Assembly: GCA_016794365.1 (NCBI GenBank) | Contig: JAEUKB010000025.1 | Location: 52,693-116,692, forward strand | Source: Myxococcales bacterium | GTDB lineage: Bacteria > Myxococcota_A > Polyangia > Palsa-1104 > JAEUJZ01 | Direction of reading: 5' to 3' | DNA length: 64,000 nucleotides | Part shown: in pieces, positions 5,216-60,000 of the stretch | How positions within the stretch are numbered: position 1 is the stretch's first letter | Layout: each line of letters opens with the position of its first letter | Notes under the pieces: generated by a model | Seen by the model: the letters and a program-made list of their open reading frames with translations, nothing else | Told to the model about the DNA's origin: nothing | Database searches by the model: none | Position numbers and translations under genes: made by a program

Positions 5216-5372
5216 CGGCTGCCCAGCGCTGTGGATCCTGTTCGCAAGGCGTGACCACCCTAACGCTTGTGGGCTGCATCGCGGGTCGTGCTAGGGTCGC
5301 GCGCTGTGGGCTGCCTGGCTGTGGGCAGCGTGCGTGGCGTTTGGCTGAAACCCTCCTCGGAGCGAGGCACTG

Positions 5373-5759
5373 ATGAAGCGAGTCACTGGCATCGGCGGCG
5401 TGTTCTTCAAGTCCAAAGACCCCAAGGCGCTCTCCGCCTGGTATCACAAGCACCTGGGCATCCCGCTGGAGTCCTGGGGTGGAGCGGTGTTTCGCTGGCA
5501 GTCGCCCGACAATCCCTCTGGGGTTGGCTCTACGGTGTGGAGCCCGTTTGCCGAGACCACCTCGTACTTCGGCGGCGGCGACTCGCAGTTCATGCTCAAC
5601 TTTCGGGTTCACGATCTGCGTGCCCTGCTCACCCAGCTGCGCGAAGAAGGCTGCTCGGTGGATGACAAGATCGATGAGTCCGAGCTGGGCTTGTTTGGCT
5701 GGATCACCGATCCCGAAGGCCGCCGCATCGAGCTGTGGCAGCCCCCCGAAGGCCGCTAG
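5373..5759 (+). CDS. VOC (glyoxalase/bleomycin-resistance/dioxygenase) family protein
   Basis: 128 aa; GGVFFKSKDP...WY..LG motif typical of small VOC-fold proteins. Confidence 0.7.
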   Translation: MKRVTGIGGVFFKSKDPKALSAWYHKHLGIPLESWGGAVFRWQSPDNPSGVGSTVWSPFAETTSYFGGGDSQFMLNFRVHDLRALLTQLREEGCSVDDKIDESELGLFGWITDPEGRRIELWQPPEGR

Positions 5760-5760
5760 C

Positions 5761-5957
5761 AGGGTCCAGACCTGGTCCGAACTACACGAGCAGCAGTTGA
5801 GATAGGGTCCAGACCCAGTCCGAACTACACGAGCAGCAGTTGAGATAGGGTCCAGACCCAGTCCGAACTACACGATCAGCAGTTGCGGCATGGTCCCGAC
5901 CCAGAGCGAACTACACGCTCAGCAGTTGCGATAGGGTCCAGACCCAGTCCAAGTGGC
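5761..5957. repeat. 43-bp tandem repeat array (~4.5 units), each unit carrying a GGGTC-NN-GACCC palindrome
   Basis: Unit agggtccagacccagtccgaactacacgagcagcagttgagat repeated head-to-tail with few substitutions; lies between convergent genes (VOC + / flavoprotein -). Confidence 0.85.
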
Positions 5958-5967
5958 TTGCGATGCA

Positions 5968-7647
5968 CTACGCGGAGGGCTTGGTCGGCTGTAGCTCTGG
6001 GTGCGCGTAGACGCCCCCGGCCAGCGAGCGAACATTGTAGCCGTGCTGGGCTAAGATGCGGGCGGCGAAGTAGCTGGTCTTGCCGTGTGCGCACAGGGTA
6101 ACGACCGGCATGCCCTGCTCCAGGGTCGGCAAGGCGTCTCGCAGTGCGGCCAGCGGGATGTTGCGGGCTCCTTCCACCGGCAGCTCCTGAGCGGCTGCGG
6201 CTCCCCGTACATCGACAAGCTGGATCCCGGGCTCTGTCGGCAGCGCAGAAACAGGGCGGACCAGCTCATCGCGCTGGTTGGTTGCCGCAAAGCCCGCCAC
6301 GTTCACCACATCCTTGGCGCTACCGAAGGGCGGAGCGTAGGACAGCTCCAGGTGAACCAGGTCGTCAATCGTCAGCCGACCGCGCAGCGCGGTGGCCAAG
6401 ATGTCCAGCCGCTTATCGACGCCCGCACCGCCGTAGGCTTGCGCACCCAGCACATCGCCGCTCTGCGGATCCCACAAGAGCTTGAGCGTGACCGACTCTG
6501 CCCCGGGATAGTACGAAGCATGCGACGAGCCCGCCACCAGCGTCACGCGGTAGTCTCGCCCAAGGGCCCGCAGCCGCTTTTCAGACAAGCCCGTGACACC
6601 TGCCGTCAGCGCAAACACCCGGACAATCGCCGTCCCCAGCGAGCCCGGATACGGCAGCGCCTTTTCCCCCAGCACAATGTGGTCGGCGCAGGTGCGACCC
6701 TGACGGTTGGCCGGTCCGCCGAGCGGGACGTTGGTCTGCTCTCCGGTAAACAGGTCGGGCGTTGCACAGACATCGCCGAGCGCATAGATCAGCGGATCGC
6801 TCGTCTGCAAGTAAGCGTTGACCGCAATGTGACCACGCGGTGTCAGCGCCAGGCCCGCTTCTTTGCCCAGGCGCGACTCCGGCACCACTCCGATCGACAG
6901 GATCACGGCACCGACCACGATGCGCTCGCCATGGGATGTGATCGCGCAGACGGGTTCGTGGGGCCGCTCGCTGGCTTCAAAAGACACAATCGCGGTGCCC
7001 AGCCGCAGCGCAATACCCTGGCGAACCAGCTCTTGCGCCAGCGGGGCCGCCATGTCCGGGTCGAGCGCGGGCAGCACCTGCGGCTGAAGCTCCACCACAT
7101 GGACGCGCTTGCCCAGGTGCGCAAGCTGCTCGGCCATCTCCAGTCCGATAAAGCCTGCGCCAATCACCAGCACCGACTCCACCTCTTCCACCGCGTGCTT
7201 GATCCGGTCCATGTCCTGCAAGCTGCGCAGGGTCAGGATCTCGGGCCGGTCGATGCCAGGCAGCGAGGGCCGAAGTGGAGCCGCACCCGGTGCCAAGATC
7301 AAATGATCATAGGGAAGCTGCGACTGCTGGCCGCTGCGCAGGTCCACCACCGTCACCGTACGGGTGCTGCGGTCGATGTGCGTGGCTTCGGTCTGGGCGC
7401 GCACGTCAATGTGCAGCAGGCTGCGCAGCGAAGCAGGCGTCTGAATCGTGAGCAGGGAGCGATCGGCAATCTCGCCCCCGATGTGATAGGGCAGCCCACA
7501 GTTGGCAAACGATACGTCGGGCCCGCGCTCCACCAGGGTGATCTGGGCAAACTCATCCAGGCGGCGAAGCCGTGCCGCCGCCGAGGCTCCTCCCGCAACG
7601 CCACCGATGATCACGACACGACGGCTGGGAGTTTTTGCATTCAACAT
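5968..7647 (-). CDS. CoA-disulfide reductase / NADH oxidase-like FAD-dependent pyridine nucleotide-disulfide oxidoreductase with C-terminal rhodanese domain
   Basis: VVIIGGVAGGASAA FAD motif, redox-active Cys in SFANCGLPY, second GAGFIGLE NAD motif, C-terminal rhodanese with CAHGKTS active-site loop. Start moved to the internal ATG (M69 of the ORF), which is preceded by AAGGAG. Confidence 0.8.
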   Translation of the reverse strand: MLNAKTPSRRVVIIGGVAGGASAAARLRRLDEFAQITLVERGPDVSFANCGLPYHIGGEIADRSLLTIQTPASLRSLLHIDVRAQTEATHIDRSTRTVTVVDLRSGQQSQLPYDHLILAPGAAPLRPSLPGIDRPEILTLRSLQDMDRIKHAVEEVESVLVIGAGFIGLEMAEQLAHLGKRVHVVELQPQVLPALDPDMAAPLAQELVRQGIALRLGTAIVSFEASERPHEPVCAITSHGERIVVGAVILSIGVVPESRLGKEAGLALTPRGHIAVNAYLQTSDPLIYALGDVCATPDLFTGEQTNVPLGGPANRQGRTCADHIVLGEKALPYPGSLGTAIVRVFALTAGVTGLSEKRLRALGRDYRVTLVAGSSHASYYPGAESVTLKLLWDPQSGDVLGAQAYGGAGVDKRLDILATALRGRLTIDDLVHLELSYAPPFGSAKDVVNVAGFAATNQRDELVRPVSALPTEPGIQLVDVRGAAAAQELPVEGARNIPLAALRDALPTLEQGMPVVTLCAHGKTSYFAARILAQHGYNVRSLAGGVYAHPELQPTKPSA

Positions 7648-7844
7648 GACCGGGCTCCTTTGGAGGACAGGAATCGGACCCATGCGGATCGCGACGTGCA
7701 GCTTGTGGCTGCTGCGCCGTCCGTACGTCGCATGGGGCCCGCTTCCTGTAGAAAGAGCAGGAACTGTACCAGGACGCGCTGCGCAGTCGCTTCGTCGCTG
7801 TCCGGTCAGACCGGGAAGACCCGGTGCCCGGTGGTGGCTCGCCT

Positions 7845-7890
7845 GTTTCAACTGCGTGTTTCATATCGAAACAGTGCAGCTGAAACAAAG
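7845..7890 (-). terminator. nested inverted repeat (possible terminator of the small peptide gene or a protein-binding site)
   Basis: gtttcaactgcg...tgtttcatatcgaaaca...tgcagctgaaac: inner perfect 6-5-6 palindrome inside an 11/12 outer stem; no U-tract, so weak as an intrinsic terminator. Confidence 0.25.
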
Positions 7891-7905
7891 GCGAGCGCCT
7901 CCTGA

Positions 7906-8091
7906 CTACTTCTTGTCTCCAGCCGGGGCTGGGCCTTTGCCGTCCTGACCCTTGGGGGCCGAGTCGGTCTTTTTGTCATCCTTGGGTGCCGTCTTTTCAT
8001 CCTTGGCCGGGGTCGGTTCGCTGGCGCGTGCTGCCGTCATCGAACCAAACGCAAACAGACCGACCAGTGTAGCGAGCGTCATCTTGTTCAT
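7906..8091 (-). CDS. small secreted Lys/Asp/Pro-rich peptide (61 aa precursor, ~38 aa mature)
   Basis: Sec signal peptide (LATLVGLFAFGSMTAARA/SE); AAGGAGA RBS 7 nt upstream of ATG; low-complexity K/D/P-rich mature part; sigma-54 promoter candidate upstream. Confidence 0.5.
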   Translation of the reverse strand: MNKMTLATLVGLFAFGSMTAARASEPTPAKDEKTAPKDDKKTDSAPKGQDGKGPAPAGDKK

Positions 8092-8165
8092 GGCTGTCTC
8101 CTTGTGAGTAAGTGGGCACAGACTCGGTCTGGGACCGTGTCGAGCCCGGTGTCAGCCAAGTGCTA

Positions 8166-8182
8166 GAGCACTCGTTGTGCCA
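8166..8182 (-). promoter_or_regulatory. sigma-54 (-24/-12) promoter candidate driving the small secreted peptide gene
   Basis: On the minus strand the sequence reads TGGCAC-aacga-gTGCt with canonical GG/GC spacing, ~60 nt upstream of the 8091 start and immediately downstream of a sigma-54 activator gene. Confidence 0.4.
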
Positions 8183-8247
8183 AGGTGTTTGTCGTCGCTG
8201 CGCAGGCCCACTTGGGTCCGCTGCATCGGGAATCGAGCCCGGCTGTA

Positions 8248-8305
8248 CGGGAAAATTTCCTGATCCCCGTTGAAAATCATCCAGCGACCGCGCGGGAAAA
8301 TTTGC
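8248..8305. promoter_or_regulatory. two copies of near-palindromic cGGGAAAATTTsC spaced ~45 bp; candidate enhancer (UAS) for the NtrC-type regulator
   Basis: cgggaaaatttcc at ~8248-8260 and cgggaaaatttgc at ~8293-8305, 65-140 bp upstream of the sigma-54 -24 element. Confidence 0.3.
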
Positions 8306-8401
8306 AGCTCGCTTCTTTCGTACCTGGCTTCGCGCACCCGGCTGCGCGGCGACCTGGGGCTTTGGGGGCGACATCGGCCCCGCGAAACACCGAGTCACAG
8401 G

Positions 8402-9763
8402 CTACGGCTTCTCTTCCGACAGCCAGTTGTAGAGCGTCTTGACATCCACCCCCAGCTTTTCCGCCGCTTGACCACGATGGCCACCTACCTGCGAGAGCGC
8501 CCACGCTGCATAGCGCCGCTGGATCAGGCGAATCGGCAAGATGTCTCCCTCCAGCGAAAACGGCGTGCTGGTCCCCGATGGTCGCAGCGTGGACGGTAGA
8601 TCACTTACACCCACTTCTTCGGATCGTCCCAGCACCACCAGTCGCTCCAGAACGTGAGACAGCTCGCGCACGTTGCCGGGCCACTCGTAGTCCAAGAGGC
8701 GCTGCATCACCTCGGGGCTGACCCGCTGCACCGGAGACTGCGGATGCCGGACCCTGTGCTCATGCAGAAAGTGGCCAATCAGGATCGGAATGTCTTCACG
8801 GCGATGCCGCAGCGCGGGCAGGTGAACCGAGATCACATCCAGCCGATAGTAGAGATCTTCGCGAAAGCGACCCGCTTTGACCGCTTCCCGCAGGTCGCAG
8901 TGCGTGGCCGCGATGATGCGCACGCTCACGCGCTGGGGACGATTGGATCCGACCGGACGAACCACGCCTTCTTCCAAGACGTGCAGCAGCTTGACCTGTA
9001 GCGCGGGCGGTAGATCGCCGATTTCATCGAGAAACAGGATGCCGCCGTGGGCCTCTGCCACCAGTCCTTTGCGGGCTTGGGTTGCGCCGGTAAAGGCTCC
9101 CTTTTCGTGACCGAACAGCTCACTTTCCAGCAGGTGCTCGGGCAGCGCACCGCAGTTGATCGCAACAAACGGACCGCCTGCCCGCAGCCCTTCGGCATGG
9201 ACAACGCGCGCAAACAGGCTCTTGCCGGTTCCTGTTTCGCCCCCGATGAGCAGCGGAACGTCCGCGCCGGACACCCGATCGAGCAGCTCAAACAGCGCGA
9301 GCATCGCTGGACTTTGCCCAATCAGCCCGGTCCGTCCGTTCTTTTCCCGTAGTGTCACCCGCAGCGCACTGGCTTCCCGCCGCACCTTCGCTTCATCGAG
9401 CGCTCGCCGCAGAAAGATCACCAGCTCTTCGATCTTGAACGGCTTGGTCAGGTAGTGCGCAGCGCCTTGACGGATGGACTCGATCGCACTGTCGATGGCC
9501 CCGTGTGCGGTCATGATCAGCACCGGACGCTCGGGAGCCTGCCGCCGGGACTGGGTCAGCAGCGCCAGACCATCGACATCCGGCATGCGCAGGTCCGTCA
9601 CCAGTGCGTCAAACGGCTCTCGACCGAGCAGCGCGGCGGCTTTCTTGCCCGATCCGAGTGGCACTGCATCAAAGCCATGGTCGGTCAGACCTTCGGACAG
9701 GACCTCGGCCATCGCCAGGTGATCATCAACGACTAGGACGCGGGGCCGGACTTCACTTGGCAT
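8402..9763 (-). CDS. sigma-54-dependent response regulator (NtrC family: REC + AAA+ + Fis-type HTH)
   Basis: Receiver LVVDDH...D, Walker [15 protein letters not shown] sigma-54 contact motif, [16 protein letters not shown]-terminal HTH. Start set at M37 of the ORF (overlaps the HK stop by ~11 nt). Confidence 0.9.
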
Positions 9764-11168: not shown

Positions 11169-11386
11169 GAGCGACTCTCCAGCGCGCCAGCTTTTGCGCG
11201 ATTCAAAGCAATGGACAGGCCAACAGCGTGGTCGTCTAGGGGACAGTAGATCGCAGCAGCTTGGGCAGCCGATTCGGGAAGTTTTGCCGATTTCGTTCGG
11301 CAATTTTTCCCGGTGCGCTGGCCGGTGCGGCGGCTGTTTGTGCGGTGTAGCGACGGTCTGAACGGGATGTACGCCCGCTGGATACC

Positions 11387-11402
11387 TGGCATGTCCTATG
11401 CA
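11387..11402 (+). promoter_or_regulatory. weak sigma-54 promoter candidate upstream of the efflux operon
   Basis: TGGCAT-gtcct-aTGCa with correct GG/GC spacing. It is very close to the annotated TolC start, which would imply a downstream start codon; uncertain. Confidence 0.25.
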
Positions 11403-11416
11403 CGACAGGGTCTTCT

Positions 11417-12931: not shown

Positions 12932-13006
12932 GTCGCGGCGCTGCCTTGTCCGATTCCTGGCCGAGTCCTTTGGGGTTCTGGCCGAGTCCTTTCCATCGAG
13001 GTTGTC

Positions 13007-14146
13007 ATGTCTACACCCAGTCTGTCTGCTCCTTCCTCGCGACTGCGCGTGCCGCTGTTTTTGGGCCTTGTGGTCTGTCTGCTGATTGGTCTGCTTGCGC
13101 TGCTACAGGCGCGCGCGCGATCGAACACCAACCAAGTAGCGCTCGATTCCACTCCCAAAGGAGTCACAGTGACCAAGGCTGTTCGCGCTACGTATCGACC
13201 ATCGCGTCGCTATGTCGGAACGGTTGCGCCGTGGCTGGAAGCGCGGATCGGACCGCAGATGACTTCTGCCTATGTGGACACTGTGCTGTTGCGACCCGGA
13301 GTGTACGTAAAGCGCGGTCAGGTGCTGGCTACGCTCGACTGTCGCAACGCATCCGAGCAGAGCAAAGCCTTGGCGATGCAAGCACGCGCGCTGCACGCCA
13401 CCCAAGAAGCGCTGGCCAAGGAAACGGGGCGCGTCTCGGGTCTACTGGAAGGTGGCTATGTGTCTCCCAATGAAGTGGATCGGCGCGTCGCGGACAGTGC
13501 CAGCAAACAGGCCGAGCTGCTGGCGGCCAATGCTCGTCTGGCGCGCGCATCACTGGAAGTCGATGACTGTGTGCTGCGGGCTCCGTTTGATGGGGAAGTG
13601 GCGGAGCGATTCCTCGATCCCGGCGCGTTTGCGCGGCCCGGAGCGCCGATTCTGTCTGTGGTCGATCGCGAGCAAGTTCGCATCCTGATCGATGTTCCAG
13701 AGACAGACTTTGCGGTGGTGGAAGTGGGCGCAGAGGCCAAGGTTCGCTTTCTGGCACTGGGGACGGAGCTGGTTGGCAAGATTGCCCGGCGCGCACCCAC
13801 TGCCGACAGCGTCACCCGCACCATTCATGCCGAGATCGACCTGCTGGATGCGCAGCGCAAGATTCCGGTCGGAACGACTGCGGAGCTTACGCTGCACGTT
13901 GGACAGCCAGTGCCTGCGAGTGAGCTGCCGATACGTGCCGCTGCCGTGCGTGGAGAGCAAGCCACCCTGTTTGTCGTGTCTGATGACATCGCGCGCAAGC
14001 GCAAAGTTCCGGTCTTGGGGGAAGTCACCGGGAGTCTGTTTCTGCCGCTTGATGCACTTCCGCCCGAGACGCTGGTGGTTGTGGAAGGTCGCGCGCTGCT
14101 CAGTGATGGGGATCGCGTACTTACCAAGCAGGAGTCACGGCCATGA
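13007..14146 (+). CDS. efflux RND transporter periplasmic adaptor subunit (HlyD/MFP family)
   Basis: N-terminal TM anchor, biotinyl-lipoyl-like hairpin motifs (RGQVLATLD, coiled coil), beta-barrel domain; 4-nt overlap with the RND permease. Confidence 0.85.
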   Translation: MSTPSLSAPSSRLRVPLFLGLVVCLLIGLLALLQARARSNTNQVALDSTPKGVTVTKAVRATYRPSRRYVGTVAPWLEARIGPQMTSAYVDTVLLRPGVYVKRGQVLATLDCRNASEQSKALAMQARALHATQEALAKETGRVSGLLEGGYVSPNEVDRRVADSASKQAELLAANARLARASLEVDDCVLRAPFDGEVAERFLDPGAFARPGAPILSVVDREQVRILIDVPETDFAVVEVGAEAKVRFLALGTELVGKIARRAPTADSVTRTIHAEIDLLDAQRKIPVGTTAELTLHVGQPVPASELPIRAAAVRGEQATLFVVSDDIARKRKVPVLGEVTGSLFLPLDALPPETLVVVEGRALLSDGDRVLTKQESRP

Positions 14147-17100
14147 CGCGGCTTTCGCTCAAGAACCCGATTGCGATCCTGATGCTGAGCCTGGCGCTGA
14201 TCGTGTTCGCTTCTGTGATCGTTCAGCGCCTGTCGATCGATACCTTTCCAGAGCTGACTCCGCCGGTTCTGGTGGTGGGAACGCTGGCACCGGGACTGGG
14301 TCCCAAGGACGTAGAAAAGACGATCACCTGGCGGATCGAAAAGTACGTGAGTGCGACCCCCGGAGTGGATCACGTCCAGAGCTTGTCTCGTAACGATCTG
14401 TCGGTGGTCTATGTCTGGCTCAAGTGGGGGACGGACCTAAACGCAGCGCAGACCTTGGTGCAGCAGCAGGTCGCGTTCGCGATGGCAGCGGTTCCCAAGT
14501 CGCTCGGGGTGCTGCCTCCGTTTGTGCTTCAGTACGATCCGTCGAACGCACCAGTGATTCAGATCGCAGTATCGGGAGACGGCTTTACCGGACCACAGAT
14601 CTACGACTATGCCCAGAACGTCATCGAGCCTGTGATTGAAGGGATCGCGGGTGTTGCCAGCGCGTCACCCAATGGCGGTCGGCAGCGGCAGATCAACGTG
14701 GTGGTCGATCCGGTGCGCGCTCAGGCTCGCGGGCTGACTTCAACCGATGTGGCAGCGGCTGTGGCCCAGACGACCGCGCTGCTTCCTTCGGGCAAGTTCA
14801 TCAACCCACGCTTCGACGCCAACGTCTACACCAACGCAGTCCCAGAGCACGTTCGTCAGATCGGCGAAGCGGTGGTGAAGCAGCGAGCGGGCAAGCCGGT
14901 TCTCCTGCGTGATGTGGCGCGCATCGAAGATGGCGGTGCGGTGGAGACCCAAGCGGTCGCGATCAACGGCAAAGAAGCGGTGTACCTGAACGTGCTGCGG
15001 GTGCCCGGAGGCAACACGCTGGCGATTGTCGATGCGGTCAAAGAAGCGGTGGCGGCGATGCAAAAGACCCTGCCGCCTGGCTTGACCGTGCGCGCGATTT
15101 TCGATCAGTCCACGTTTGTACGAACCAGCTACGAAGGACTGCGCAAAGAAGTGGTGCAGGCACTCGTGCTCATCGCGATCGTGATCCTGATCTTTTTGCA
15201 GAACCTGCGCGCGGTGCTGATCGCGGTGCTGTCGATTCCGATCGCGTTTGCGACGATTCTGCTGGTGCTCTACGCGACTGGACAGACGCTGAACGCGTTT
15301 ACGCTGGGAGGTCTGACGCTGGCGATGGGACCGCTGGTGGACATCTCGGTGGTGGTGCTGGAGTCGATCCATCGTCATCGTCACGGCAGTCGTAGCGAAG
15401 AACAAGCGGCGCTGCATGGCACAAATGCGGTGGCGCTGCCTGCGCTGGCTGCGACGCTGACCACGATTGCAGTGCTGATTCCGGTGCTGCTGCTGGCGGG
15501 CCTGGCCAAGAAGCTGTTTGCTCCGCTGGCGCTGACCGTGGCGACCGGGATGATTGCGGGCTATGTGGTGAGCATGGCGGTGACTCCGGTGGCGTGTCGC
15601 TATCTGCTCGGTCACGGAGAGCCCGGACCGCTGGCTCGCTTTGTCGAAGTGCGCATCCAGCGCCTGGCCGACTGGTATGTGCGACTGCTGCGTGCCACGT
15701 TGGCCTTTCGCGCGGTCCTGATTGGCGGGGCGGTGGTCCTGATTGCGGCGAGCGGTTACTTTGCGTCGCAGCTCCCCAGCACGTTCTTTCCCGAGATCGA
15801 CGAGGGCATGGAGCGCATCTATGTGCGGCTGGCTCCGGGTACGTCGCTGACCGAAGCCCGTCGTCAGATCCTTGCCATGGGCGAGCGACTACAGCGCGAG
15901 TTGCCCGCAGGCTCCGTCAGCTTGGTGCTGGCCAACATTGGATCGCCGCAGAACGCGCGCTCGGCCATGAACAGCCCCAACGCCGGTCCGCACATGGGCT
16001 TTCTTCGCCTGGAACTGAGCGACGCCGCGCATCGCAAGCACTCGCAGCGAGAGATCGCCGATCAGGCCCGGGCGATCCTGACCCGTCACTATCCTGGGGT
16101 CAGCTTCCTTCAGTGGCCCGGCGGCCTGGTCGCCAGCGTCTTTGCCAACGGCTACCTGGCCCCGCTGGTGGTCGAGCTGCGTGGTAGCTCACTCGACGAG
16201 CTGTACGAGCAGTCGCAGGCCATCGCCGAGGTCGCTCGCTCTGTCCCTGGCGTTCGCGACATCACCCCGCAGCTTCAGATCGACTACCCCGAGGTCCGCA
16301 TCGAGCTAGACCGCGCCCAGGCGGGTATGGTCGGTGTGCCGCTGCGCAGTGCGGCCCAGACCACCTTGGAGGCCACGATTGGCAACATCAACTCGCCCGG
16401 CATCTGGGTCGATGGCTCAAATGGCCAGTCCTACTACGTCGTCACCACGTATGACCGCGAGTCCATCCGCGATCCCAGCCTGCTTTCGCAGGTTCCGGCC
16501 CGCTTGTCTGAGCGTGGCATCGCGGTGGCGCTGGGGACGTACGGCAAGGTGCGCCGCTCGCTGGGGCCGATCGCCATCGAGAGAAACCAGCTTGAGCGCA
16601 CCGCCACGGTCTTTATGCAGACCGAAGGCCGGGACATCGGCAGTGCCGCAGCCGAGCTGGAAGCCAAGCTCAAGTCATCATCCAAGACCGCCGGGCTTCA
16701 CTTCCGCTTTGTGGGCCAAGTCGAGCTGATGCGCACCACCTTTGGCGGCATCGGCATCGCCATCGGCTTGGCCGTGATGGTGGTCTTTATGATCATGGCG
16801 TCGCAGTTTCAGTCCTTGCGGCTGCCGCTCATCATGCTGCTGTCGATCCCGGGGGCGCTGGTCGGCATCGTGCTGGCGCTGCTGGCGGCGGGGCAGGGTT
16901 TTTCGATCACGGCGCTGATGGGCGTGCTGATGGTCGTCGGCATTGCTGTGTCAAACGGCATCCTGCTGGTCGATGCAGCCAGTCAGCGTGTCCAGGGGGG
17001 CGAGTCCTTGCTGGAAGCCGCCTTGTCCGCTGCGCGGGTGCGCTTTACGCCAATCGCGATGACCAGCTTGGCCACCATCATTGGCCTTCTGCCGACCGCG

Positions 17101-17244
17101 CTGGGACTTGAACATGGTGCCGAGTCGAACCGACCGCTCGCCCTGGCCGTGGTGGGAGGGCTTTCGACCGCAACGCTGCTCTCGCTGTTTCTGGTTCCCG
17201 CCCTGTTCACCCTCATCGGCAAGCCCGAGCAGCCTGCGCCGTAA
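14143..17244 (+). CDS. efflux RND transporter permease subunit (AcrB/CzcA superfamily)
   Basis: 1033 aa, 12 TM topology with two large periplasmic loops; characteristic N-terminal MTRLSLKNPIAILMLSL... and TM4 GPLVD...VVLES motif. Confidence 0.9.
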   Translation: MTRLSLKNPIAILMLSLALIVFASVIVQRLSIDTFPELTPPVLVVGTLAPGLGPKDVEKTITWRIEKYVSATPGVDHVQSLSRNDLSVVYVWLKWGTDLNAAQTLVQQQVAFAMAAVPKSLGVLPPFVLQYDPSNAPVIQIAVSGDGFTGPQIYDYAQNVIEPVIEGIAGVASASPNGGRQRQINVVVDPVRAQARGLTSTDVAAAVAQTTALLPSGKFINPRFDANVYTNAVPEHVRQIGEAVVKQRAGKPVLLRDVARIEDGGAVETQAVAINGKEAVYLNVLRVPGGNTLAIVDAVKEAVAAMQKTLPPGLTVRAIFDQSTFVRTSYEGLRKEVVQALVLIAIVILIFLQNLRAVLIAVLSIPIAFATILLVLYATGQTLNAFTLGGLTLAMGPLVDISVVVLESIHRHRHGSRSEEQAALHGTNAVALPALAATLTTIAVLIPVLLLAGLAKKLFAPLALTVATGMIAGYVVSMAVTPVACRYLLGHGEPGPLARFVEVRIQRLADWYVRLLRATLAFRAVLIGGAVVLIAASGYFASQLPSTFFPEIDEGMERIYVRLAPGTSLTEARRQILAMGERLQRELPAGSVSLVLANIGSPQNARSAMNSPNAGPHMGFLRLELSDAAHRKHSQREIADQARAILTRHYPGVSFLQWPGGLVASVFANGYLAPLVVELRGSSLDELYEQSQAIAEVARSVPGVRDITPQLQIDYPEVRIELDRAQAGMVGVPLRSAAQTTLEATIGNINSPGIWVDGSNGQSYYVVTTYDRESIRDPSLLSQVPARLSERGIAVALGTYGKVRRSLGPIAIERNQLERTATVFMQTEGRDIGSAAAELEAKLKSSSKTAGLHFRFVGQVELMRTTFGGIGIAIGLAVMVVFMIMASQFQSLRLPLIMLLSIPGALVGIVLALLAAGQGFSITALMGVLMVVGIAVSNGILLVDAASQRVQGGESLLEAALSAARVRFTPIAMTSLATIIGLLPTALGLEHGAESNRPLALAVVGGLSTATLLSLFLVPALFTLIGKPEQPAP

Positions 17245-17245
17245 A

Positions 17246-17494
17246 GGGTGAAGACCCCGCGTGAAGTGGGCGATGAGGGAATGAAGAAGGGTCGCGACCC
17301 CGTACAAAGTGGGCGATGAGGAAGTCAGGAAGGGTTGCGACCCCGTACAAAGTGGGCGATGAGGAAGTCAGGAAGGGTGAAGACCCTGTGCCAGGGGGTC
17401 GATGAGGAAGTCAGGAAGGGTGAAGACCCTGTGCCAAGGGGTCGATGAGGAAGTTAGGAAGGGTGAAGACCCTGCGTGAAGTGGTCTTGAGCGT
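17246..17494. repeat. 43-bp tandem repeat array (~5.8 units) related to the 5761-5957 array; units contain GGGTCGCGACCC (perfect 12-bp palindrome) or GGGTGAAGACCC
   Basis: Units agggtSRmgaccccgYRYRRRGTGGGCGATGAGGAAGTCAGGA repeated head-to-tail; between convergent genes (RND permease + / ppsR -). Confidence 0.85.
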
Positions 17495-17510: not shown

Positions 17511-18353
17511 TCAGTGCATGGGCGTGCCGGTGCGCTGGTGGTAGCTGCGCAGGACATCGGCGGCGGTCTCTTCGATGGCTTTGCCGGTGACATCAACGAC
17601 CGTCCAGTCGGGATGGCTGCGGAGCAGGTCGCGGGCGAAGTAGATCTCGCGCAGGATGTAGTCGCGCTGGCCGTAGCTGGTGTCGGTGGTCATGTGGATG
17701 CGCAGCAGGCGCTCGCGGCGGATTTGCAGCAGCGCATCGGGCTGGATTTGCAGGGCATAGACGCGCTCGGGTGGCACTTGGTCTAGCTCTGGCGGCAGCG
17801 GCAGGTCGAGCACCAGCGGGACGTTGGCGACGCGGTAGCCTTTCTGCGCCAGGTAGATCGACAGCGGGGTCTTCGAGGTCCGGCTGATGCCGAGCAGCAC
17901 CAAGTCGGCCTTGATCAGGTTTTCGGGACAGCGGCCATCGTCACTTTGAACGGTGAACTCGATGGCTTCCATGCGCCGGTAGTAACTGTCGGACACGGTG
18001 TGCAGAAGTCCCGGAACCTCGCGTGGCTCGACCGACAAAAAGCGCGCCATGGTGCCAAGCAGTGAGCCAATCAGATCGACATACGGGACGCCGCGCTGCT
18101 CGCACTTGGTCTGAAGGACTTTGCGTTCCTCGCCTCGCACCAGGGTGGACACCACCAGGCCCTGGGCGCGCTGGGCATTGCCGACGACTACATCCATGTC
18201 GAGCTCGTGCCGAAGGTGAGGCACGATGCGCAGGTCGGTGGCGTCTTCGCGCAGATCGAACTGGCGCAGGGCGGCCCGGACCATCTTTTCGGCAGTCTCG
18301 CCGGTCGAGTCAGAGACGATGAAGATCGTACGCAGGAGCCCGCAGTCAGCCAT
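17511..18353 (-). CDS. ppsR: pyruvate, water dikinase (PEP synthase) regulatory protein, kinase/pyrophosphorylase (DUF299)
   Basis: IFIVSDSTGETAEK P-loop-like motif and overall PSRP architecture. Start set at internal ATG (M32), since the upstream part of the ORF is Arg/Pro-rich junk. Confidence 0.85.
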   Translation of the reverse strand: MADCGLLRTIFIVSDSTGETAEKMVRAALRQFDLREDATDLRIVPHLRHELDMDVVVGNAQRAQGLVVSTLVRGEERKVLQTKCEQRGVPYVDLIGSLLGTMARFLSVEPREVPGLLHTVSDSYYRRMEAIEFTVQSDDGRCPENLIKADLVLLGISRTSKTPLSIYLAQKGYRVANVPLVLDLPLPPELDQVPPERVYALQIQPDALLQIRRERLLRIHMTTDTSYGQRDYILREIYFARDLLRSHPDWTVVDVTGKAIEETAADVLRSYHQRTGTPMH

Positions 18354-32839: not shown

Positions 32840-34081
32840 TTACGGAAGAGCGACAGGCTTCAGACCGAGCGCCGCTCCGAGTGCCCGGGTGGCTTCCTTT
32901 TCAAACGGAGCCGCTCCCGGTGCTTTGGCGCGGGCCAGCATGCCGTCGTAAAAGGCGCGCAGCTCGGTCTTGTTCATCGGACGTTCCTTTCCTCCTCCGA
33001 CCGCGATAAAAAACTTTCCGCGCGTGGGAGAGCCGTCCTTTTCGTCCTGACGAACAACCACCATCAGCGCGCCCGCCGTTCCTGTCAGGGTCCAGCTTCC
33101 GTTTCCGTGTACCGCTGTGGGGTAATAGGTCTTGAGGTCCGCTGCTTTGAACTTCGCCACCGCCGCCGGACTGGCCGGAGCCGGAGCCGCAGTCGCAGTA
33201 GGAGCCGGAGTAGGAGTCGCAACTGGAGTAGGAGCCGGAGTAGGAGCCGGAGTAGGAGCCGGAGTAGGAGCCGGAGTAGGAGTCGGAGTAGGAGCCGGAG
33301 TCGGAGTCGGAGTAGGAGTCGCAGCCGGCATGACCGGCGAGATCAGTGCGCAGTTTTTGACGTTCAGATCGACGGTGTCCATCTCTTCGACCGTCGCGCT
33401 CACCACTGCTTCGGTCGTAGACGGTAGGTTCTGAACAAATGACACGACCGGACCGGACAGACGACAGGAAACCGAGTTGAACTCGTTGCCACGGATCTTC
33501 AGCTTATCGCCCGATACCGAAGCAATCCGACCGCTGATGGTCAGCGCCTTTCCCTTGTACTTTAGCGTCGCCGCCACCGAGTTCTTCAGATAGTCCGTCA
33601 GCATGTCTTTGGCGGTTACAGAGTCTCCGCTCAGTGGCAGATTTACCGTCGCTGGGAGCACCGGATCAAGCAGCTTGATGATCTTGCAGTTTTGGAGCCG
33701 CAGTGAATACGTTCCGATCGCAGCGACTCCCGTGACCACCAGTGTCTGTCCCACCGCCAGCTTGGCCAGCTCTGGGGAATCGGACAGCGCGGACTCACAC
33801 GCGATGTAGTCGAAGTACTTGGGCGAGCGCAGATCGATCGCCGGATTTTTGCGTCCAAGCGAGTCGTTGACTGCGAAGAAGCCGTTCACACGCAGATTGA
33901 ACACCTCTAGCTGCTTGCCGTTGTAGCCAGCCGCCGCCGCGCCGCCTGTTTTTTGCGCAGCAATCAGATCGACGCCATCCACCCGCTGCGCCGTCTGCGC
34001 ATGGGCCGTCATTTCAACCAGAGACAGAAGCGCAACGGCAACACCTTGCGCAACACAGATCAGGGAACCAGTGCGAGACAT
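32840..34081 (-). CDS. secreted two-domain protein with tRNA_anti-like OB-fold repeats and PT-rich linker
   Basis: Signal peptide; two OB-fold-like repeats ([14 protein letters not shown]..., [24 protein letters not shown]); (PTPTPAPT)n linker; AGGAG RBS before the ATG at 34081. Confidence 0.6.
33165..33340 (-). repeat. coding tandem repeat (ggagccggagtagga...) encoding the Pro/Thr/Ala linker
   Basis: Seen as a (PTPAPT)n run in the - frame and as GAGVGAGVG / RSRSRS runs in other frames. Confidence 0.6.
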
Positions 34082-34210
34082 GAACACACTCCTATGCAAA
34101 GTCTACAGTAGCAAAGAGACGGCCTCATAGGTGCTTCCTTCAGCGTGCGCGCGCAGCGATTGGTACAGCGCAGTCTGTTCGTAGAAGCGCACTGTGAATG
34201 AATCGAACAT

Positions 34211-34300
34211 CCAGAACCAGACACCCAGAACCAGACACCCGGTCGTCGATCGCCAGACAGAGTCAGACAGAGTCAGACAGAGTCAGACAGAGTCAGACAC
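34211..34300. repeat. short tandem repeats in promoter region: (ccagaaccagacac)x2 and (cagacagagt)x~4.5
   Basis: Located 130-220 bp upstream of the 34081 start, downstream of the TonB receptor stop. Confidence 0.7.
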
Positions 34301-39898: not shown

Positions 39899-40239
39899 TT
39901 GTTGGACGATCTGCTTGATCGCGATCGTGTCCGTTGAATTTGAAAACGCTTTTCATTTTCTAACTGATTCAGGGTCTGTCAAGTACGAACTGCGCAAGCA
40001 GGGCTTGTCTGATCCCTGTTAATTAAGGCGAATTACCGTCGCTGATTGGTGCGGTGTGGACGAACTCTTTGCGCCAGAGCAGCCCAGATGAGATGTGGAA
40101 TTTGTCGGACCAATTTCAAGGCGCTGTGCAAGTGAACCGGGATGTGCGGACCACATGCTGCCCAGGATCGCTGTCTTACCGCTGGGTCAGTGAGCGATTC
40201 CTATCCTGTGAGTCCTGTATCTCCACAGTACATTGTAGG

Positions 40240-40299
40240 AGAGCGAGCAGAGAGCGAGCAGAGAGCGAGCAGAGAGCGAGCAGAGAGCGAGCAGAGAGG
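40240..40299. repeat. 11-bp tandem repeat (agagcgagcag)x5 immediately after the stop codon of the hydrolase gene
   Basis: Perfect head-to-tail copies abutting the TAA (minus strand) at 40301. Confidence 0.8.
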
Positions 40300-56067: not shown

Positions 56068-57465
56068 ATGCCTACACCGTTTGATCCAGCGGGTCTGCTC
56101 GATCTGTCCAAAGCCAAGCGAACCGATTTTGTCGAACTTCCCAAAGTGCTCGCGGCGTACAAACCGAAGCGGGAATCCGACAAGGAAAATGTGCTGTTTG
56201 ATGCGCCGCCAGAGCATACAGATCTGGAATCCCTGAAAGCTGCGAAGCCGTTTGATCCGAGCCTCTTTTATAGCTTCAGCTCACTGCTTGGCGGACTCCC
56301 TTCCGGTCCGGCAGTGGTGATGGGACTGTTCCGCTGTCAGGGTCGCGAGCAGGTGGTGGTGCGACTGTTCGATCCGCAGCGACCGCAGGACGGAGTGCCG
56401 CTTTCGCCGATGTATTTTTTGCTACACAGAGGCCACGCGCAGCTGGCCAAAGACAAGCAGTGGGTGTCCCAAGATGCACCGCTGTGGCTGGCTCTGTACG
56501 CAGCGGCGTACTACAGCATGATCGAGGATCGAAAGGCGTTTTATCGGCGCGAAGATCTGGGTGGACCGGACAACGCGGCCTGGCTGGTTCTGTACGGAAA
56601 GGACAGCAGTCGCGCCAAGTATCCCAAGGAAGAAGCGCAAGGCGAAGGAGAGGAAGGGGGCGACGGAACCAGAGCACTCCTTCATCAAGTCTTGGGATGT
56701 CACAGCGAGCTACCGAACCTGGATCTTTATCAAGATGCGCTGTCGATCCTCGATCCGAAGGTTCAGAAAAAGTACAGCAAGGCGTGGCAGGCGTTCCTAG
56801 ACAAGCGTCCCTATGTTCCGTCGTCGGGACTGCGCACCGGACTGCGCGCAACGTCGATGCAGCTCTGTAGCATGATGGATGCGTGGCTGCGCAGCAAGCC
56901 GGGTCTGTGTGAAGAACAGATCTCGCTGCTGTTGTGGTATCTGGAAGCAAACGGAGCGATCGCGGAAAAAGGAAAGCAGCGCTATCACAAAGGGGCGCGG
57001 AGCCTGTGGCAGGGTGTGCAGCAGACGCTGGTGAAGCGGACTCCGTGTGCGCTGACGGTTCGCAAAGACAGCCCGCTGCTGGCGGTGCTTCCGGATCGGA
57101 AGAGCAAAGAAGAAGAGGAAGAGGACGCTGGACGGACGTGGGAAGTCGTCTCTGTCGGAGCGCTGGATCTGCCGCCCAAGAAAGAAGAGTCGCGTCGGCT
57201 GCTGTTTGTGGGAATCGCGGATCGCAGTGGCACTGGCCGCAAGTTTGTGTGGGAAGAGACAGACAAAGAGTCCCAGCGATTCAAGCTACAGACCAAGCCC
57301 AGCAAAAAGGGAGAGTTCTGGATCGAGCTGGATCAGATCATGACGGAAGTGGATCGCATCCATGTGGGCGCAGCCGCGAAAGTAGCGCTGGCGAGTCAGG
57401 GAGACGGACAGACGTTTGTGCTGTCCGGAGAACGGAACCTGAAGCTCGATTGGAAGCAGCAGTGA
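56068..57465 (+). CDS. hypothetical protein (465 aa, no recognised domain)
   Basis: Strong AAGGAG RBS; mixed alpha/beta composition with Lys/Glu-rich segments; co-directional with the patatin gene. Confidence 0.5.
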   Translation: MPTPFDPAGLLDLSKAKRTDFVELPKVLAAYKPKRESDKENVLFDAPPEHTDLESLKAAKPFDPSLFYSFSSLLGGLPSGPAVVMGLFRCQGREQVVVRLFDPQRPQDGVPLSPMYFLLHRGHAQLAKDKQWVSQDAPLWLALYAAAYYSMIEDRKAFYRREDLGGPDNAAWLVLYGKDSSRAKYPKEEAQGEGEEGGDGTRALLHQVLGCHSELPNLDLYQDALSILDPKVQKKYSKAWQAFLDKRPYVPSSGLRTGLRATSMQLCSMMDAWLRSKPGLCEEQISLLLWYLEANGAIAEKGKQRYHKGARSLWQGVQQTLVKRTPCALTVRKDSPLLAVLPDRKSKEEEEEDAGRTWEVVSVGALDLPPKKEESRRLLFVGIADRSGTGRKFVWEETDKESQRFKLQTKPSKKGEFWIELDQIMTEVDRIHVGAAAKVALASQGDGQTFVLSGERNLKLDWKQQ

Positions 57466-57585: not shown

Positions 57586-57603
57586 GTGGGATTCTGTTTG
57601 GAA

Positions 57604-57687
57604 GGGAATCGCGAAAGGAATGGGAAGGGAATCGCGAAAGGAATCGCGAAAGGAATCGCGAAAGGAATCGCGAAAGGAATCGCTTGC
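57604..57687. repeat. 12-bp tandem repeat (aatcgcgaaagg)x~6 abutting the stop codon of the rlmB-like gene
   Basis: Perfect copies with one variant unit; ends exactly at the minus-strand stop at 57687. Confidence 0.8.
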
Positions 57688-58493
57688 TACTGAAGTCGCT
57701 GCTGACGGAGACACTCGTACAACAGGACGGCTCCAGCGGCAGAGACATTGAGCGATGCACCGTGCAGACCGGACGGCATGGGAATCTCAGCCCGGAGATC
57801 ACAGGTCTTGCGCACGAGCGGACGCAGACCACTCCCTTCCCCGCCAAGCACGACGCCAATCGGAACCGACAGATCCAGATCCCACAGCGGCTGTCCGCCT
57901 TGACCGGGAGCAACCGCAGCGACGAGCCACAGTCCTCCCTCTTTGAGCTGTTCCATCGCGCGTACCAGGTTGGCAACCTTGACGATCGGAAGCTGTGAGG
58001 TCGCTCCAGCGGCGGCTTTGATGGCTCCAGCGGTGACTTGCGCGGCGCGATCTTGCGGAATCACCACTGCATCGGCTCCCAGCACACAGGCCGAACGAAT
58101 CAGCGCACCCAGGTTTTGGGGGTCGGTCACTCCGTCGAGGATCAGCACAACCGGAGTCTTCCCAGCTTCCTGCGCGCGCCGCACCGGAGCCAGTGGATCG
58201 CTCTCATACGCGAACTCTGCACACAGCGCGACCACTCCTTGATGGACGCCGTTTTGACTGATGCGATCCAGCTCACTGCGCGACTTGAGGACCGGACGAA
58301 TGCGTGCTTTTTCAGCAGCCTGACGCACGAGCGACAGCGCATCGGGCTTTTCGTCGCGACCCGGCTTTGGGTCTGGCTTGCTTCCTTCGAGCAGATACAG
58401 CGACTGAACGTCTTGGGGACGCCGCTCGAGGACTTCACGAACAGCGTGGATTCCGTAGATCACTTGCGCGGACGGGCTTTGCTGTAGTTGCAT
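57687..58493 (-). CDS. rlmB: TrmH-family 23S rRNA (guanosine-2'-O)-methyltransferase RlmB-like
   Basis: N-terminal IYGIHAVREVL substrate-binding domain, SPOUT motifs (GVHQGVVAL, VVLILDGVTDPQNLGALIR, VIPQDR). Start set at internal ATG M84; the upstream ORF segment is SQSV-repeat junk. Confidence 0.75.
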   Translation of the reverse strand: MQLQQSPSAQVIYGIHAVREVLERRPQDVQSLYLLEGSKPDPKPGRDEKPDALSLVRQAAEKARIRPVLKSRSELDRISQNGVHQGVVALCAEFAYESDPLAPVRRAQEAGKTPVVLILDGVTDPQNLGALIRSACVLGADAVVIPQDRAAQVTAGAIKAAAGATSQLPIVKVANLVRAMEQLKEGGLWLVAAVAPGQGGQPLWDLDLSVPIGVVLGGEGSGLRPLVRKTCDLRAEIPMPSGLHGASLNVSAAGAVLLYECLRQQRLQ

Positions 58494-58593
58494 GCCCGCC
58501 TTGTACCGGAAATTCCGGCGGAAGCCCACGAAGTCGAGCGCACAGGTGGTGATTTGCAGCGCATCGCCACAATGTGAGCGCTTCGGCTGGGGG

Positions 58594-60000
58594 TCACGGA
58601 CGGACTGGCTGACCGATTGGCTGACCGAGCGGCTGACCGATTGGCTGACCGAGCGCCCGCAGCAGCTGAGCCCGCGCACTGGCGAGCGCATACTCCGCTT
58701 GCACAAGCTGCGCCGACGCTGTGGTGAAGGCAAGCTGCGCATCGCCCAGCTCGATCATGCTACCGACGCCGGTTCGATAGCGCGCTTCCGCAAGTCGCAG
58801 TCGTTCCCCGGCGCTCTGCTGGGCTTGCTGCACGGCAACACAGGTCGCTTTGCTGGCGCGCACTTGCAGCCGGGCCGACGAAAGCTCGACGCGGACTTGC
58901 TGACGGAGGCTCTGCAACTGGGCATCCAGCGCGGTCAGGTTGGCGCTCTGTTCTTTGACCTGCGACAGCGTGAGCAGACCTTGAAAGATCGGCCAGCTCA
59001 GGTTGACCGACGCGCTGAGGTTGAGCGCCAGCTGCGAGATGTTTGTGCCCGCATCGGTTAGGCTCATCGTGGCCCCGAGCGACGGTCCGTACCCACCTTT
59101 GGCTGCCGAAAGAAGCAGCTTCTGCGCCGCAAGCTGTCGGGACAAGACCAGAAACTCGGGCCGCTCGGCGAGCGCGGTCGGCAACAGCTCCTCGGTGGGC
59201 TGATCTTCGCCGGGCACGGGCGGAAGCTGTTCGTCTTGCACATCAAAATCGACGCTGTCTTCGACGCCCATTGCGGCGCGCAGCTGGGCCTTGGCGATCT
59301 CGTAGCTGTTTTCGCTGGCAATCACCTGGACGGATGCGTTGGCGCGATCGGTGCGAGCCTGCGCGAGGTCGATCTCGGGCCGTGTTCCGACGGAAACAAA
59401 CGCAGTGACCTGAACCAAGTGACGATCCTGATTGGCCAGGTTGTCGCGTGCCACTTGCAGCAGCGCGCGCTGGGCCCGCGCCGCAAAGTAGGCATTTTGC
59501 ACGGTGGTCGCGATCTGTAGCGCGGTGACCTGCTCACTTGCGTGCTGGGCGTCGGCGCTGGCGGAAGCGGCCTGCCACCTGCGCGTCGTCTGTCCGAAGT
59601 CCCAGATGTACTGCGAAAGCTGCATGCCGAAGCTAAAGAAGTTGAAGGTATCGAGCGAGATCGCCGTCGCGCTGCTGGCAAACTGCGACGGAACGGCTCC
59701 CGGTCGAGCGACAAAGTTGGCGGTGGTGCGCTGATACGACGCTGTGCCGGTAAGCTGCGGCAAGATCGGGGCGCGGGCTTGATCGGCGCGGGCGCGGGCT
59801 GCCATCGTCTGAGCCCTTGCCAAAAGGAGCTGCGGCTGATGCTCTTTGGCCGTCTGGAGCGCGTCCTGCAAGCTCAGCACCTTCAGCGCGCTCGGTGGGG
59901 CCATGGCGGGCTGCGCTTGGGTCGCTCGCTCCTCGGCAGCAAGCGACGTAAGGGAAACCGGGCCCAGCACAGCGGCTGTCACGAACACGTAAGCTCTCAT
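58594..60000 (-). CDS. TolC-family outer membrane efflux protein with C-terminal (GQPI)n repeat
   Basis: Signal peptide, two OEP repeats; the C-terminal tail GQPIGQPLGQPIGQPV is encoded by a 12-bp DNA tandem repeat (58596-58650); 4-nt overlap with the upstream RR gene. Confidence 0.8.
   Translation of the reverse strand: MRAYVFVTAAVLGPVSLTSLAAEERATQAQPAMAPPSALKVLSLQDALQTAKEHQPQLLLARAQTMAARARADQARAPILPQLTGTASYQRTTANFVARPGAVPSQFASSATAISLDTFNFFSFGMQLSQYIWDFGQTTRRWQAASASADAQHASEQVTALQIATTVQNAYFAARAQRALLQVARDNLANQDRHLVQVTAFVSVGTRPEIDLAQARTDRANASVQVIASENSYEIAKAQLRAAMGVEDSVDFDVQDEQLPPVPGEDQPTEELLPTALAERPEFLVLSRQLAAQKLLLSAAKGGYGPSLGATMSLTDAGTNISQLALNLSASVNLSWPIFQGLLTLSQVKEQSANLTALDAQLQSLRQQVRVELSSARLQVRASKATCVAVQQAQQSAGERLRLAEARYRTGVGSMIELGDAQLAFTTASAQLVQAEYALASARAQLLRALGQPIGQPLGQPIGQPVRP

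Follow-up and report, generated by a model that had tools for sequence, protein, structure and literature searches.

A dispersed family of 43-bp tandem repeats with a conserved palindrome between genes of an uncultured Myxococcota lineage

Mycobacterial interspersed repetitive units (MIRUs) and similar variable-number tandem repeats (VNTRs) are intergenic tandem repeats of 40-100 bp, which occur at many loci, abut genes and differ in copy number between strains; MIRUs lie within operons, carry small open reading frames (ORFs) that overlap the stop or start codons of their neighbours, and are not known to have a conserved palindromic core. In repetitive extragenic palindromic (REP) elements, the palindrome is tagged at one end with a conserved tetranucleotide, GTAG or CGTC, and tandem clusters of REP elements have been documented (PMC3733652). 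As an array of this kind, REP325 of E. coli was reported to be a terminator as well as an mRNA stabiliser (bioRxiv 10.64898/2026.03.23.713779), and systems of inverted REP doublets (REPINs) and REP-associated tyrosine transposases (RAYTs) provide a precedent for long-lived repeat populations within genomes. Another described system, the F-plasmid centromere sopC, which is bound by SopB, consists of 12 direct repeats of 43 bp (44 or 45 bp in some relatives), each with a 16-bp inverted repeat, TGGGACC-AC-GGTCCCA, while binding does not require the remaining part of the unit and the edge repeats are degenerate (PMC3177203). The subject of the present study is a pair of tandem arrays with a 43-bp period in a Myxococcales bacterium (GenBank assembly GCA_016794365.1, contig JAEUKB010000025.1, positions 52,693 to 116,692 of the forward strand; these 64,000 nucleotides are hereafter called the window).

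Both 43-bp arrays are real, and such arrays form a dispersed non-coding repeat family of an uncultured Myxococcota lineage, which is apparently undescribed. They resemble MIRUs and other VNTRs in the unit length, intergenic position, number of loci, strain-variable copy number and closeness to genes named above, whereas the operonic setting, the small ORFs and the lack of a palindromic core set MIRUs apart. Their likeness to REP elements and to sopC is considered below, after the anatomy of the unit.

Two 43-bp arrays and their family

Every unit of the family opens with a palindrome, termed D1; units of type B carry a second hairpin, D2, and units of type A have a CGATGAG block in its place. 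Array 1, which lies between a VOC/glyoxalase-like gene and a gene for a coenzyme A (CoA)-disulfide-reductase-like flavoprotein (CoADR), was called by Tandem Repeats Finder (TRF) at 5761-5950 with a period of 43, 4.4 copies, 88% matches and no indels. Its core (5762..5945, assigned to no strand) comprises four full 43-bp type B units, which start in register at 5762, 5805, 5848 and 5891, and a terminal D1 dyad at 5934-5945, as supported by TRF, by the register and by profile hits with E of 1e-9 to 1e-11. The D1 palindrome GGGTCCAGACCC, likewise without strand, is found at 5805..5816, with further copies at 5762-5773, 5848-5859, 5891-5902 and 5934-5945. The initial annotation had every unit open with a perfect dyad, which does not hold here, as the dyad is intact in three of the five copies, and the edge copy at 5762 reads GGGTCCAGACCT and that at 5891 TGGTCCCGACCC. 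The array begins 2 nt past the stop codon of the VOC gene and closes with a diverged unit, GGGTCCAGACCCAGTCCAAGTGGCTTGCGATGCACTACGCGGA (5934..5976, end approximate, no strand), which was recognised against the family consensus by AAGTGG and the family core TGCGATGCA and overlaps the stop codon of the CoADR gene (5968-5970, minus strand). Once this last unit is counted, the gap of 5760-5967 is filled, and with that proviso the earlier description of about 4.5 copies occupying the whole gap is sound.

Array 2 begins 1 nt past the stop codon of an RND efflux pump gene and was called by TRF at 17244-17472, with a period of 43, 5.3 copies and 87% matches. According to TRF and the register, its core (17246..17472, plus strand) consists of five 43-bp type A units and a terminal D1 at 17461, followed by a partial sixth unit to about 17493. 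The D1 palindrome GGGTCGCGACCC is located at 17289..17300, without strand, while the others, starting at 17246, 17332, 17375, 17418 and 17461, read GGGTGAAGACCC or GGGTTGCGACCC. The CGATGAG block at unit positions 26-32, which is common to type A arrays of other genomes, lies at 17314..17320 on the plus strand, and its other copies are at 17271, 17357, 17400 and 17443. The plus strand of array 2 is G-rich, with a GC skew of +0.42.

The initial annotation had pointed to a related array at 17246-17494, and the relation was confirmed. The two arrays share the 43-bp period and carry GGGTNNNNACCC (GGGT-N4-ACCC) in phase. This motif has 10 sites in the window where 0.45 would be expected, a count that none of 100 shuffles reached, and nine of the 10 sites fall within arrays 1 and 2, exactly in 43-bp phase. 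The consensus units of the two arrays match at 26 of 43 positions in register, and the two are thus diverged relatives and not copies of each other. A unit profile search of the window gave no further convincing copy, the best extra match (E = 0.015) being inside a kinase gene.

Outside the window, one genome per species was scanned for three dyads spaced 40-46 bp apart, which gave at least 113 stretches. Among the matches listed, arrays with the oriented core GGGTC-NNN-ACCC-T are concentrated in Myxococcota metagenome-assembled genomes (MAGs), with several per genome, and the intervals in arrays with this core are of 43 bp in 59 cases, 42 bp in 12 and 44 bp in one, where 40-46 bp was allowed. 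A metagenome scan at fixed period yielded about 31 further clear members, and the family now counts at least 47 arrays, mainly from Myxococcota MAGs and metagenomes. It is sparse: in about 150 kb of DNA from relatives, retrieved by way of their proteins, the only arrays were those linked to CoADR. The unit is thus not unique to the two loci of the window, nor was it found to belong to a known annotated repeat family, both of which the initial annotation had considered. Rfam gave no hit in the whole window at gathering thresholds, and at E up to 10 the two arrays gave only chance-level matches to miRNAs, snoRNAs and viroids, with E of 0.07 or worse and from unrelated eukaryotic or archaeal families. 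In the literature, work on REP/RAYT systems in other phyla was found, and no description of the 43-bp family or of any myxobacterial REP system.

The absence of coding potential, as initially annotated, was confirmed: the unit length of 43 is not divisible by three and none of the frames is conserved, and the arrays are therefore regarded as non-coding. Coding sequences or MIRU-like mini-ORFs were rejected, as the ATG...TGA ORFs in array 2 change frame from unit to unit and are unconserved. A viral origin was rejected as well, because the oriented two-unit pattern had no hits in the viral contigs of IMG/VR, and a loose pattern of three dyads with wide gaps gave there only unrelated repeats, none with a 43-bp period.

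Repeats of similar design were met in other lineages. The Verrucomicrobiae MAG MFD00731 (L047, L053, L065, L097, L123, L138, L143), of an unrelated phylum, represents genomes with at least seven arrays each and a period of 42-44 bp, in which the unit combines GGGTCGCCACCC with a hairpin of 7-bp stem, GCCTCGC-TTG-GCGAGGC; the same type of unit is seen in L167, L185 and L203. Low-GC contigs (37-42% GC; L164, L171, L174, L191, L196, L209, and L062 from a Fibrobacter sp. MAG) carry 43-bp arrays of up to 11 units, with the unit GGGTAYAAACCC-TCTGAGGTAG...AAAAACCGTTTT...AAGGTAG, a separate repeat family that shares the dyad and the period. Homology of the Verrucomicrobiae and low-GC arrays with the present family was rejected and they were taken as analogous, as the search pattern itself had picked dyad and period; the likeness of the Verrucomicrobiae arrays may reflect convergence or a wider class. 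Finally, arrays of GGGTC-NN-GACCC-T with periods of 21, 22 and 23 bp, about half of 43, were found in L114, L077 (a Polyangiaceae MAG), L105 and L082.

Anatomy of the unit and turnover of the arrays

The unit consensus was derived from 47 oriented arrays, which comprise 187 distinct units. In these units, D1 is a conserved 14-bp palindrome, A-GGGTC-YR-GACCC-T, with a pyrimidine-purine (Y-R) central dinucleotide, and its positions A0, C5, G8 and T13 are each about 85% conserved, though not forced by the searches. The short dyad of the initial annotation is therefore present, but it extends to 14 bp, and many units add a covarying D2 hairpin. The remainder of the unit outside D1 measures 29-31 nt and is uniform inside one array and different across arrays. 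D1 sites occur almost entirely in head-to-tail arrays (184 sites, against five solo sites, in 472 kb).

In type B units, D2 lies about 21.5 bp from the centre of D1, which is half of the period, and is exemplified by CCCATGC-GAT-GCATGGG and by AACTAC-N7-GCAGTT in array 1. The hairpin of array 1 was placed on the minus strand at 5823..5841, where the plus strand reads AACTAC-ACGAGCA-GCAGTT and the minus strand AACTGC-ugcucgu-GUAGUU with one G.U pair; further copies are at 5780-5798, 5866-5884 and 5909-5927, and the distance between the centres of D2 and D1 is 21.5 bp. Five stem pairs of D2 covary above all 500 shuffles, with compensatory changes, and when one unit is taken per array, five of the six D2 pairs have changed on both sides. 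A D1-D2-D1 model, again with one unit per array, outscores all shuffles and every slid control. Type B arrays are almost self-reverse-complementary. In units of type A, to which those of array 2 belong, CGATGAG stands at positions 26-32 and little pairing is seen there, and G30 is conserved in 176 of the 187 units. Types A and B coexist in single genomes, and both are common to several genomes. Given units with D1 at both ends, RNAalifold favoured pairs formed by adjacent dyads; this periodic alternative is equally valid and by sequence alone inseparable from local D1 hairpins. The per-position consensus of the 187 units has no conserved GTAG/CTAC or CGTC/GACG beside D1 or D2, GTAG being found only in the D2 arm of array 1.

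Comparison with relatives reveals persistence at some sites and gain or loss at others. Window positions 5968-14860 are syntenic with the contig L178 and its relatives (82-97% amino acid identity over four proteins), which likewise have an array just past the CoADR stop codon, with the CoADR itself at about 86% amino acid identity. Strains with identical CoADR carry six versus seven units, with the unit variants reordered, and in another lineage at 86% identity CoADR is followed by about 11 units, which are split between two adjoining sub-arrays, while the CoADR array of the window has four units of a type different from that of its relatives. The gene past the CoADR array differs in all three lineages. 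In L050 and L093, whose flanking protein is 74% identical, an array is retained at the orthologous site in both. Array 2 is present in contigs of the same species, which break inside it, and is absent after the pump gene in relatives with 91, 90 and 79% RND identity, and in each of these the neighbouring gene is a different one; the PpsR gene of relatives is directly followed by another gene, without an array. Both arrays of the window are situated at synteny breakpoints, and short-read contigs end inside 43-bp arrays.

The change in unit number, together with the persistence and turnover of sites, indicates that the arrays behave as VNTRs and mark synteny breakpoints. The most degenerate units are those at the edges, which fits growth via internal duplication. 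From these comparisons we infer that arrays expand and contract in place via slippage or unequal exchange, whereby inner units would be homogenised and older, degenerate units left at the edges. Gain, loss and replacement of arrays also appear to take little evolutionary time, and arrays seem to tend toward gene-order junctions. In the 3' flank of the array-free RND gene of the 91% relative (L236, 5822-5900), a weak alignment to the first unit of array 2 (...GCGAGCGGGATGAAGGAAGG...) was seen; either a proto-unit or what is left of a decayed one may lie there, the alignment being weak and the profile search having no significant match in this flank.

A REP/BIME-like reading and its rivals

The initial annotation had named REP elements or bacterial interspersed mosaic elements (BIMEs), iterated protein-binding sites and structured small RNAs (sRNAs) without choosing among them. 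REP/BIME elements of Enterobacteria and Pseudomonas, which are built of imperfect palindromes of 20-40 bp, are the nearest in habit, as the 43-bp family too has short extragenic stem-loop palindromes (D1 of 14 bp and a D2 hairpin of 15-19 nt), tandem reiteration, adjacency to stop codons, convergent neighbours and variation between strains. All of the arrays examined are intergenic, often within 10 nt of a stop codon, and by crude gene calls seven are in convergent, nine in tandem and three in divergent settings. In the RNA folding check that the initial annotation had proposed, the minus strand of array 1 gave z = -5.76 versus z = -1.75 for its plus strand. Since D2 covaries, the minus strand of array 1 folds strongly, and arrays adjoin stop codons in a convergent setting, the arrays are tentatively read, with confidence somewhat short of even, as a REP/BIME-like repeat which expands through slippage and provides transcripts with hairpins at their 3' ends. 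As for REP/BIME elements of E. coli, the arrays would be transcribed as tails of flanking, often convergent, genes, and the series of D1 and D2 hairpins would slow or stop read-through. The hairpins may also block 3'-to-5' exonucleases and thereby set the 3' ends and the stability of mRNAs, and an effect on translation termination is conceivable because arrays start 1-2 nt past stop codons. The strong conservation of the D1 sequence suggests that it is recognised in trans, by a reader that might be a nuclease, a transposase or a protein with affinity for RNA or DNA. The assignment of a strand from G.U wobbles is suggestive and partly circular.

A number of observations weigh against this reading. 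For the plus strands of both arrays and the minus strand of array 2, folding beats shuffles only marginally, with z about -2, and units of type A, those of array 2 among them, are without a convincing second hairpin. The excess of G.T over A.C, 28 versus 12, drops to 16 versus 8 without the pair 26:30, which was removed because this position sways the orientation of near-palindromic arrays. According to crude gene calls, arrays border gene 5' ends with nearly the same frequency as 3' ends (35 versus 28), and no clear bias in array orientation relative to the flanking genes was seen, with about 13 arrays co-directional and 8 not. Promoter and terminator prediction over 5300-6300 found no canonical promoter or intrinsic terminator within array 1 or next to it. 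Recognition of double-stranded DNA would account at least equally well for the symmetric Y-R centre of D1, the strict period of 43 bp and the small number of solo D1 sites.

The family also falls outside the REP family as defined, because the tag, the organisation in singlets and doublets and the high copy number are wanting. It has no conserved GTAG or CGTC tag, its units run strictly head-to-tail with D1 and D2 in alternation, whereas in the REP system one REP occurs in alternating orientation, singlets and REPIN-like inverted doublets are almost absent, and its copy density is low. Its host belongs to a Myxococcota lineage, for which no described REP system was found. No link to a RAYT, a Y1/HUH transposase whose gene is flanked by the repeats in REP systems, was seen in a survey of array neighbours, which would miss a RAYT present in single copy at another place in the genome. 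In that survey, Pfam annotation of 106 array-adjacent ORFs found no transposase, ParA, ParB or cas domain, and an all-against-all comparison of the array-neighbour ORFs found no recurrent transposase, partition or DNA-binding gene. The sole recurrent neighbours were Ser/Thr kinase domains, in 8 of the 106 ORFs (alignment A2), which probably merely reflects the abundance of kinases in Myxococcota; some of these loci may be cross-sample duplicates.

The main rival, although an unlikely one, is an array of iterated double-stranded DNA sites, in which a dimeric protein binds D1 and builds a nucleoprotein array as at sopC, acting as a chromosomal boundary, insulator, topological or segregation-type element where genes end. 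As 43 bp is about four helical turns and D2 follows at a half-period of 21.5 bp, the sites would lie on one face of the helix. The geometry agrees with sopC in its direct repeats of about 43 bp (with 42- and 44-bp variants here), one GGG-containing inverted repeat with a 2-bp centre, a remainder that is conserved inside an array, and degenerate edges; D1 is conserved at the level of sequence around its symmetric Y-R centre, arrays with the same dyad exist at periods of 21-23 bp, D1 almost never occurs solo, and orientation relative to genes looks random. However, the SopB box TGGGACCACGGTCCCA is not matched: D1, AGGGTC-YR-GACCCT, has arms of 6 bp, one base under those of the SopB box, and shares with it only the GGG and the design with a 2-bp centre, which is purine-pyrimidine in sopC and pyrimidine-purine in D1. 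Centromeres of the sopC type occupy one locus per replicon beside their partition genes, whereas arrays of the 43-bp family are chromosomal, are numerous in a genome, lie in intergenic gaps of ordinary kind and were absent from viral contigs. No sopAB/parAB adjoins the family and no other DNA-binding gene recurs among its neighbours, and its gain and loss between close relatives is unexpected for an essential architectural site. It differs from sopC in its second, covarying hairpin as well, and as the D2 sequences differ among arrays of one genome while their stems covary, base pairing is indicated rather than the sequence specificity of one protein. A more specific proposal is that the arrays are the cis half of a chromosomal system, where a dimeric protein on 43-bp-phased palindromes, in the manner of SopB on sopC, would form insulators of transcription or topology at gene ends, or recombination hotspots that drive the lineage-specific rearrangements at both arrays of the window, and this we consider quite improbable. 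A selfish or neutral repeat, for its part, is a doubtful but conceivable explanation. According to it, a palindromic element is mobilised in trans, or copied by recombination or gene conversion, seeds intergenic sites and expands as a VNTR, with D1 being kept only as a requirement of the mobilising enzyme. The shifts between presence and absence, the swapping of unit types at one site, the strain-variable copy number and the position at synteny breakpoints all agree with such a history, as do the two subtypes shared across genomes and found within single ones, and the lack of a consistent orientation or gene context. On the other hand, no transposase lies beside any array (with the same reservation for a RAYT encoded elsewhere), there are almost none of the solo units and inverted doublets that transposition usually yields, and the family is sparse, with no further arrays in the roughly 150 kb of relatives' DNA. 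Moreover, persistence at the same site across species at 74-86% amino acid identity and the compensatory changes in D2 suggest some constraint.

An independent non-coding RNA gene, such as a multi-hairpin sRNA or protein sponge like CsrB/RsmZ with repeated GGA, or a series of tandem sRNA genes, is very improbable. It would find some support in the supported D1 and D2 hairpins, in the purine-rich sequence of array 2 with two GGA per unit (GAGGAAG, CAGGAAG), and in a weak, sub-threshold Rfam likeness to box C/D RNAs that stems from the GAUGA block. Nevertheless, the same prediction over 5300-6300 gave no promoter-like site or terminator, and with arrays starting 1-2 nt past stop codons there is no space for a promoter of their own; the permissive Rfam matches were at chance level, as noted above, the GGA of type B units is buried in the extended D1 stem, and unit sequences diverge freely among arrays. 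A box C/D k-turn or CsrA sponge was rejected accordingly, having only short GAUGA/GGA motifs, the type B GGA being paired, and no family support; a hammerhead or other ribozyme based on CGAUGAG was rejected by inspection, as the block is not CUGANGA and has no adjoining stem II. There is next to no chance that the arrays are degenerate CRISPR (short palindromic repeats that are clustered and regularly interspaced) or other guide-RNA arrays of a TIGR-like (tandem interspaced guide RNA) kind, to which they bear a likeness in the regularly spaced short palindromic repeat that opens and closes each array. CRISPR repeats measure 24-48 bp, whereas the conserved repeat here is only 12-14 bp, the 43-bp period is below CRISPR periods, and no recurrent cas or other genes occur nearby. 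The initial annotation had set CRISPR aside for want of unique spacers, and rightly so, because the 31-nt segments between dyads are near-identical within an array (87-88%).

Genomic setting and implications

The VOC/glyoxalase-like gene (5373..5759, plus strand; Glyoxalase_6, E = 7e-6) is convergent with the CoADR gene (5968..7650, minus strand), whose product has a Pyr_redox_2 match (E = 4.7e-61) and a rhodanese domain. The gene for the RND (AcrB-family) efflux pump (14143..17244, plus strand) lies upstream of array 2 and is convergent with a PpsR-type kinase/pyrophosphorylase gene (17511..18350, minus strand). The gene content of the window, which includes infB, sigma-54 activators, histidine kinases and the RND efflux operon, is that of an ordinary chromosome. 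The RND pump protein is 100% identical to a protein of an NCBI 'Myxococcales bacterium' MAG, the relatives of PpsR and CoADR are from Myxococcales or 'Deltaproteobacteria' MAGs, and an orthologue of CoADR at 74% identity is located in a Myxococcales MAG that carries four arrays.

An 11.3-kb block, 5946-17245 (CoADR-EBP-histidine kinase-OEP-MFP-RND), has an array at each end. This block is largely syntenic in the P0003 lineage, while the genes beyond it vary among lineages, and in the relative GCA_964608355.1 CoADR is apart from the pump operon. In another relative, L218, a gene of the SMI1_KNR4 family is present directly downstream of the CoADR arrays; its orthologue in the window (47934-49049, minus strand, 76% identical) is 42 kb from CoADR, which illustrates the extent of rearrangement here.

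Other tandem repeats were also identified in the window. At 57601-57683, about seven copies of the 12-bp unit GAAAGGAATCGC, purine-rich on the plus strand like array 2, take up most of the convergent gap between the ORFs 56068..57465 (plus) and 57687..58742 (minus). Further short intergenic tandem repeats, some of them perfect, are found at 40239-40298 (GAGAGCGAGCA, 5.5 copies, just past a stop codon), 34207-34299 (ACACCCAGAACCAG, 2.4 copies, then CAGACAGAGT, 4.6 copies), 63922-63967 (GACAAAGGGAAT, 3.8 copies) and 36426-36465 (an 18-bp unit, 2.2 copies). Gene ends in this genome seem liable to acquire tandem repeats rich in purines. Two more repeats are within genes, at 880-993 in the N-terminal region of infB (18 bp, 6.3 copies) and at 33176-33321 within the ORF 32840..34099 (a 6/12-bp unit, GGAGCCGGAGTA, 11 copies).

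The architecture of the family, with head-to-tail 43-bp units, a 14-bp palindrome and a covarying second hairpin, is easy to recognise. The arrays break short-read assemblies exactly at gene ends, and they provide strain-level VNTR markers for uncultured myxobacteria and flag synteny breakpoints. The parallel with sopC poses a testable question, namely whether a protein reads D1 in its double-stranded DNA form or whether what is read is a hairpin, be it of RNA or of single-stranded DNA. If the REP/BIME-like reading is true, REP/BIME-type biology, that is, structured and fast-evolving repeats at gene ends, would reach into the Myxococcota, with their large and heavily rearranged genomes.

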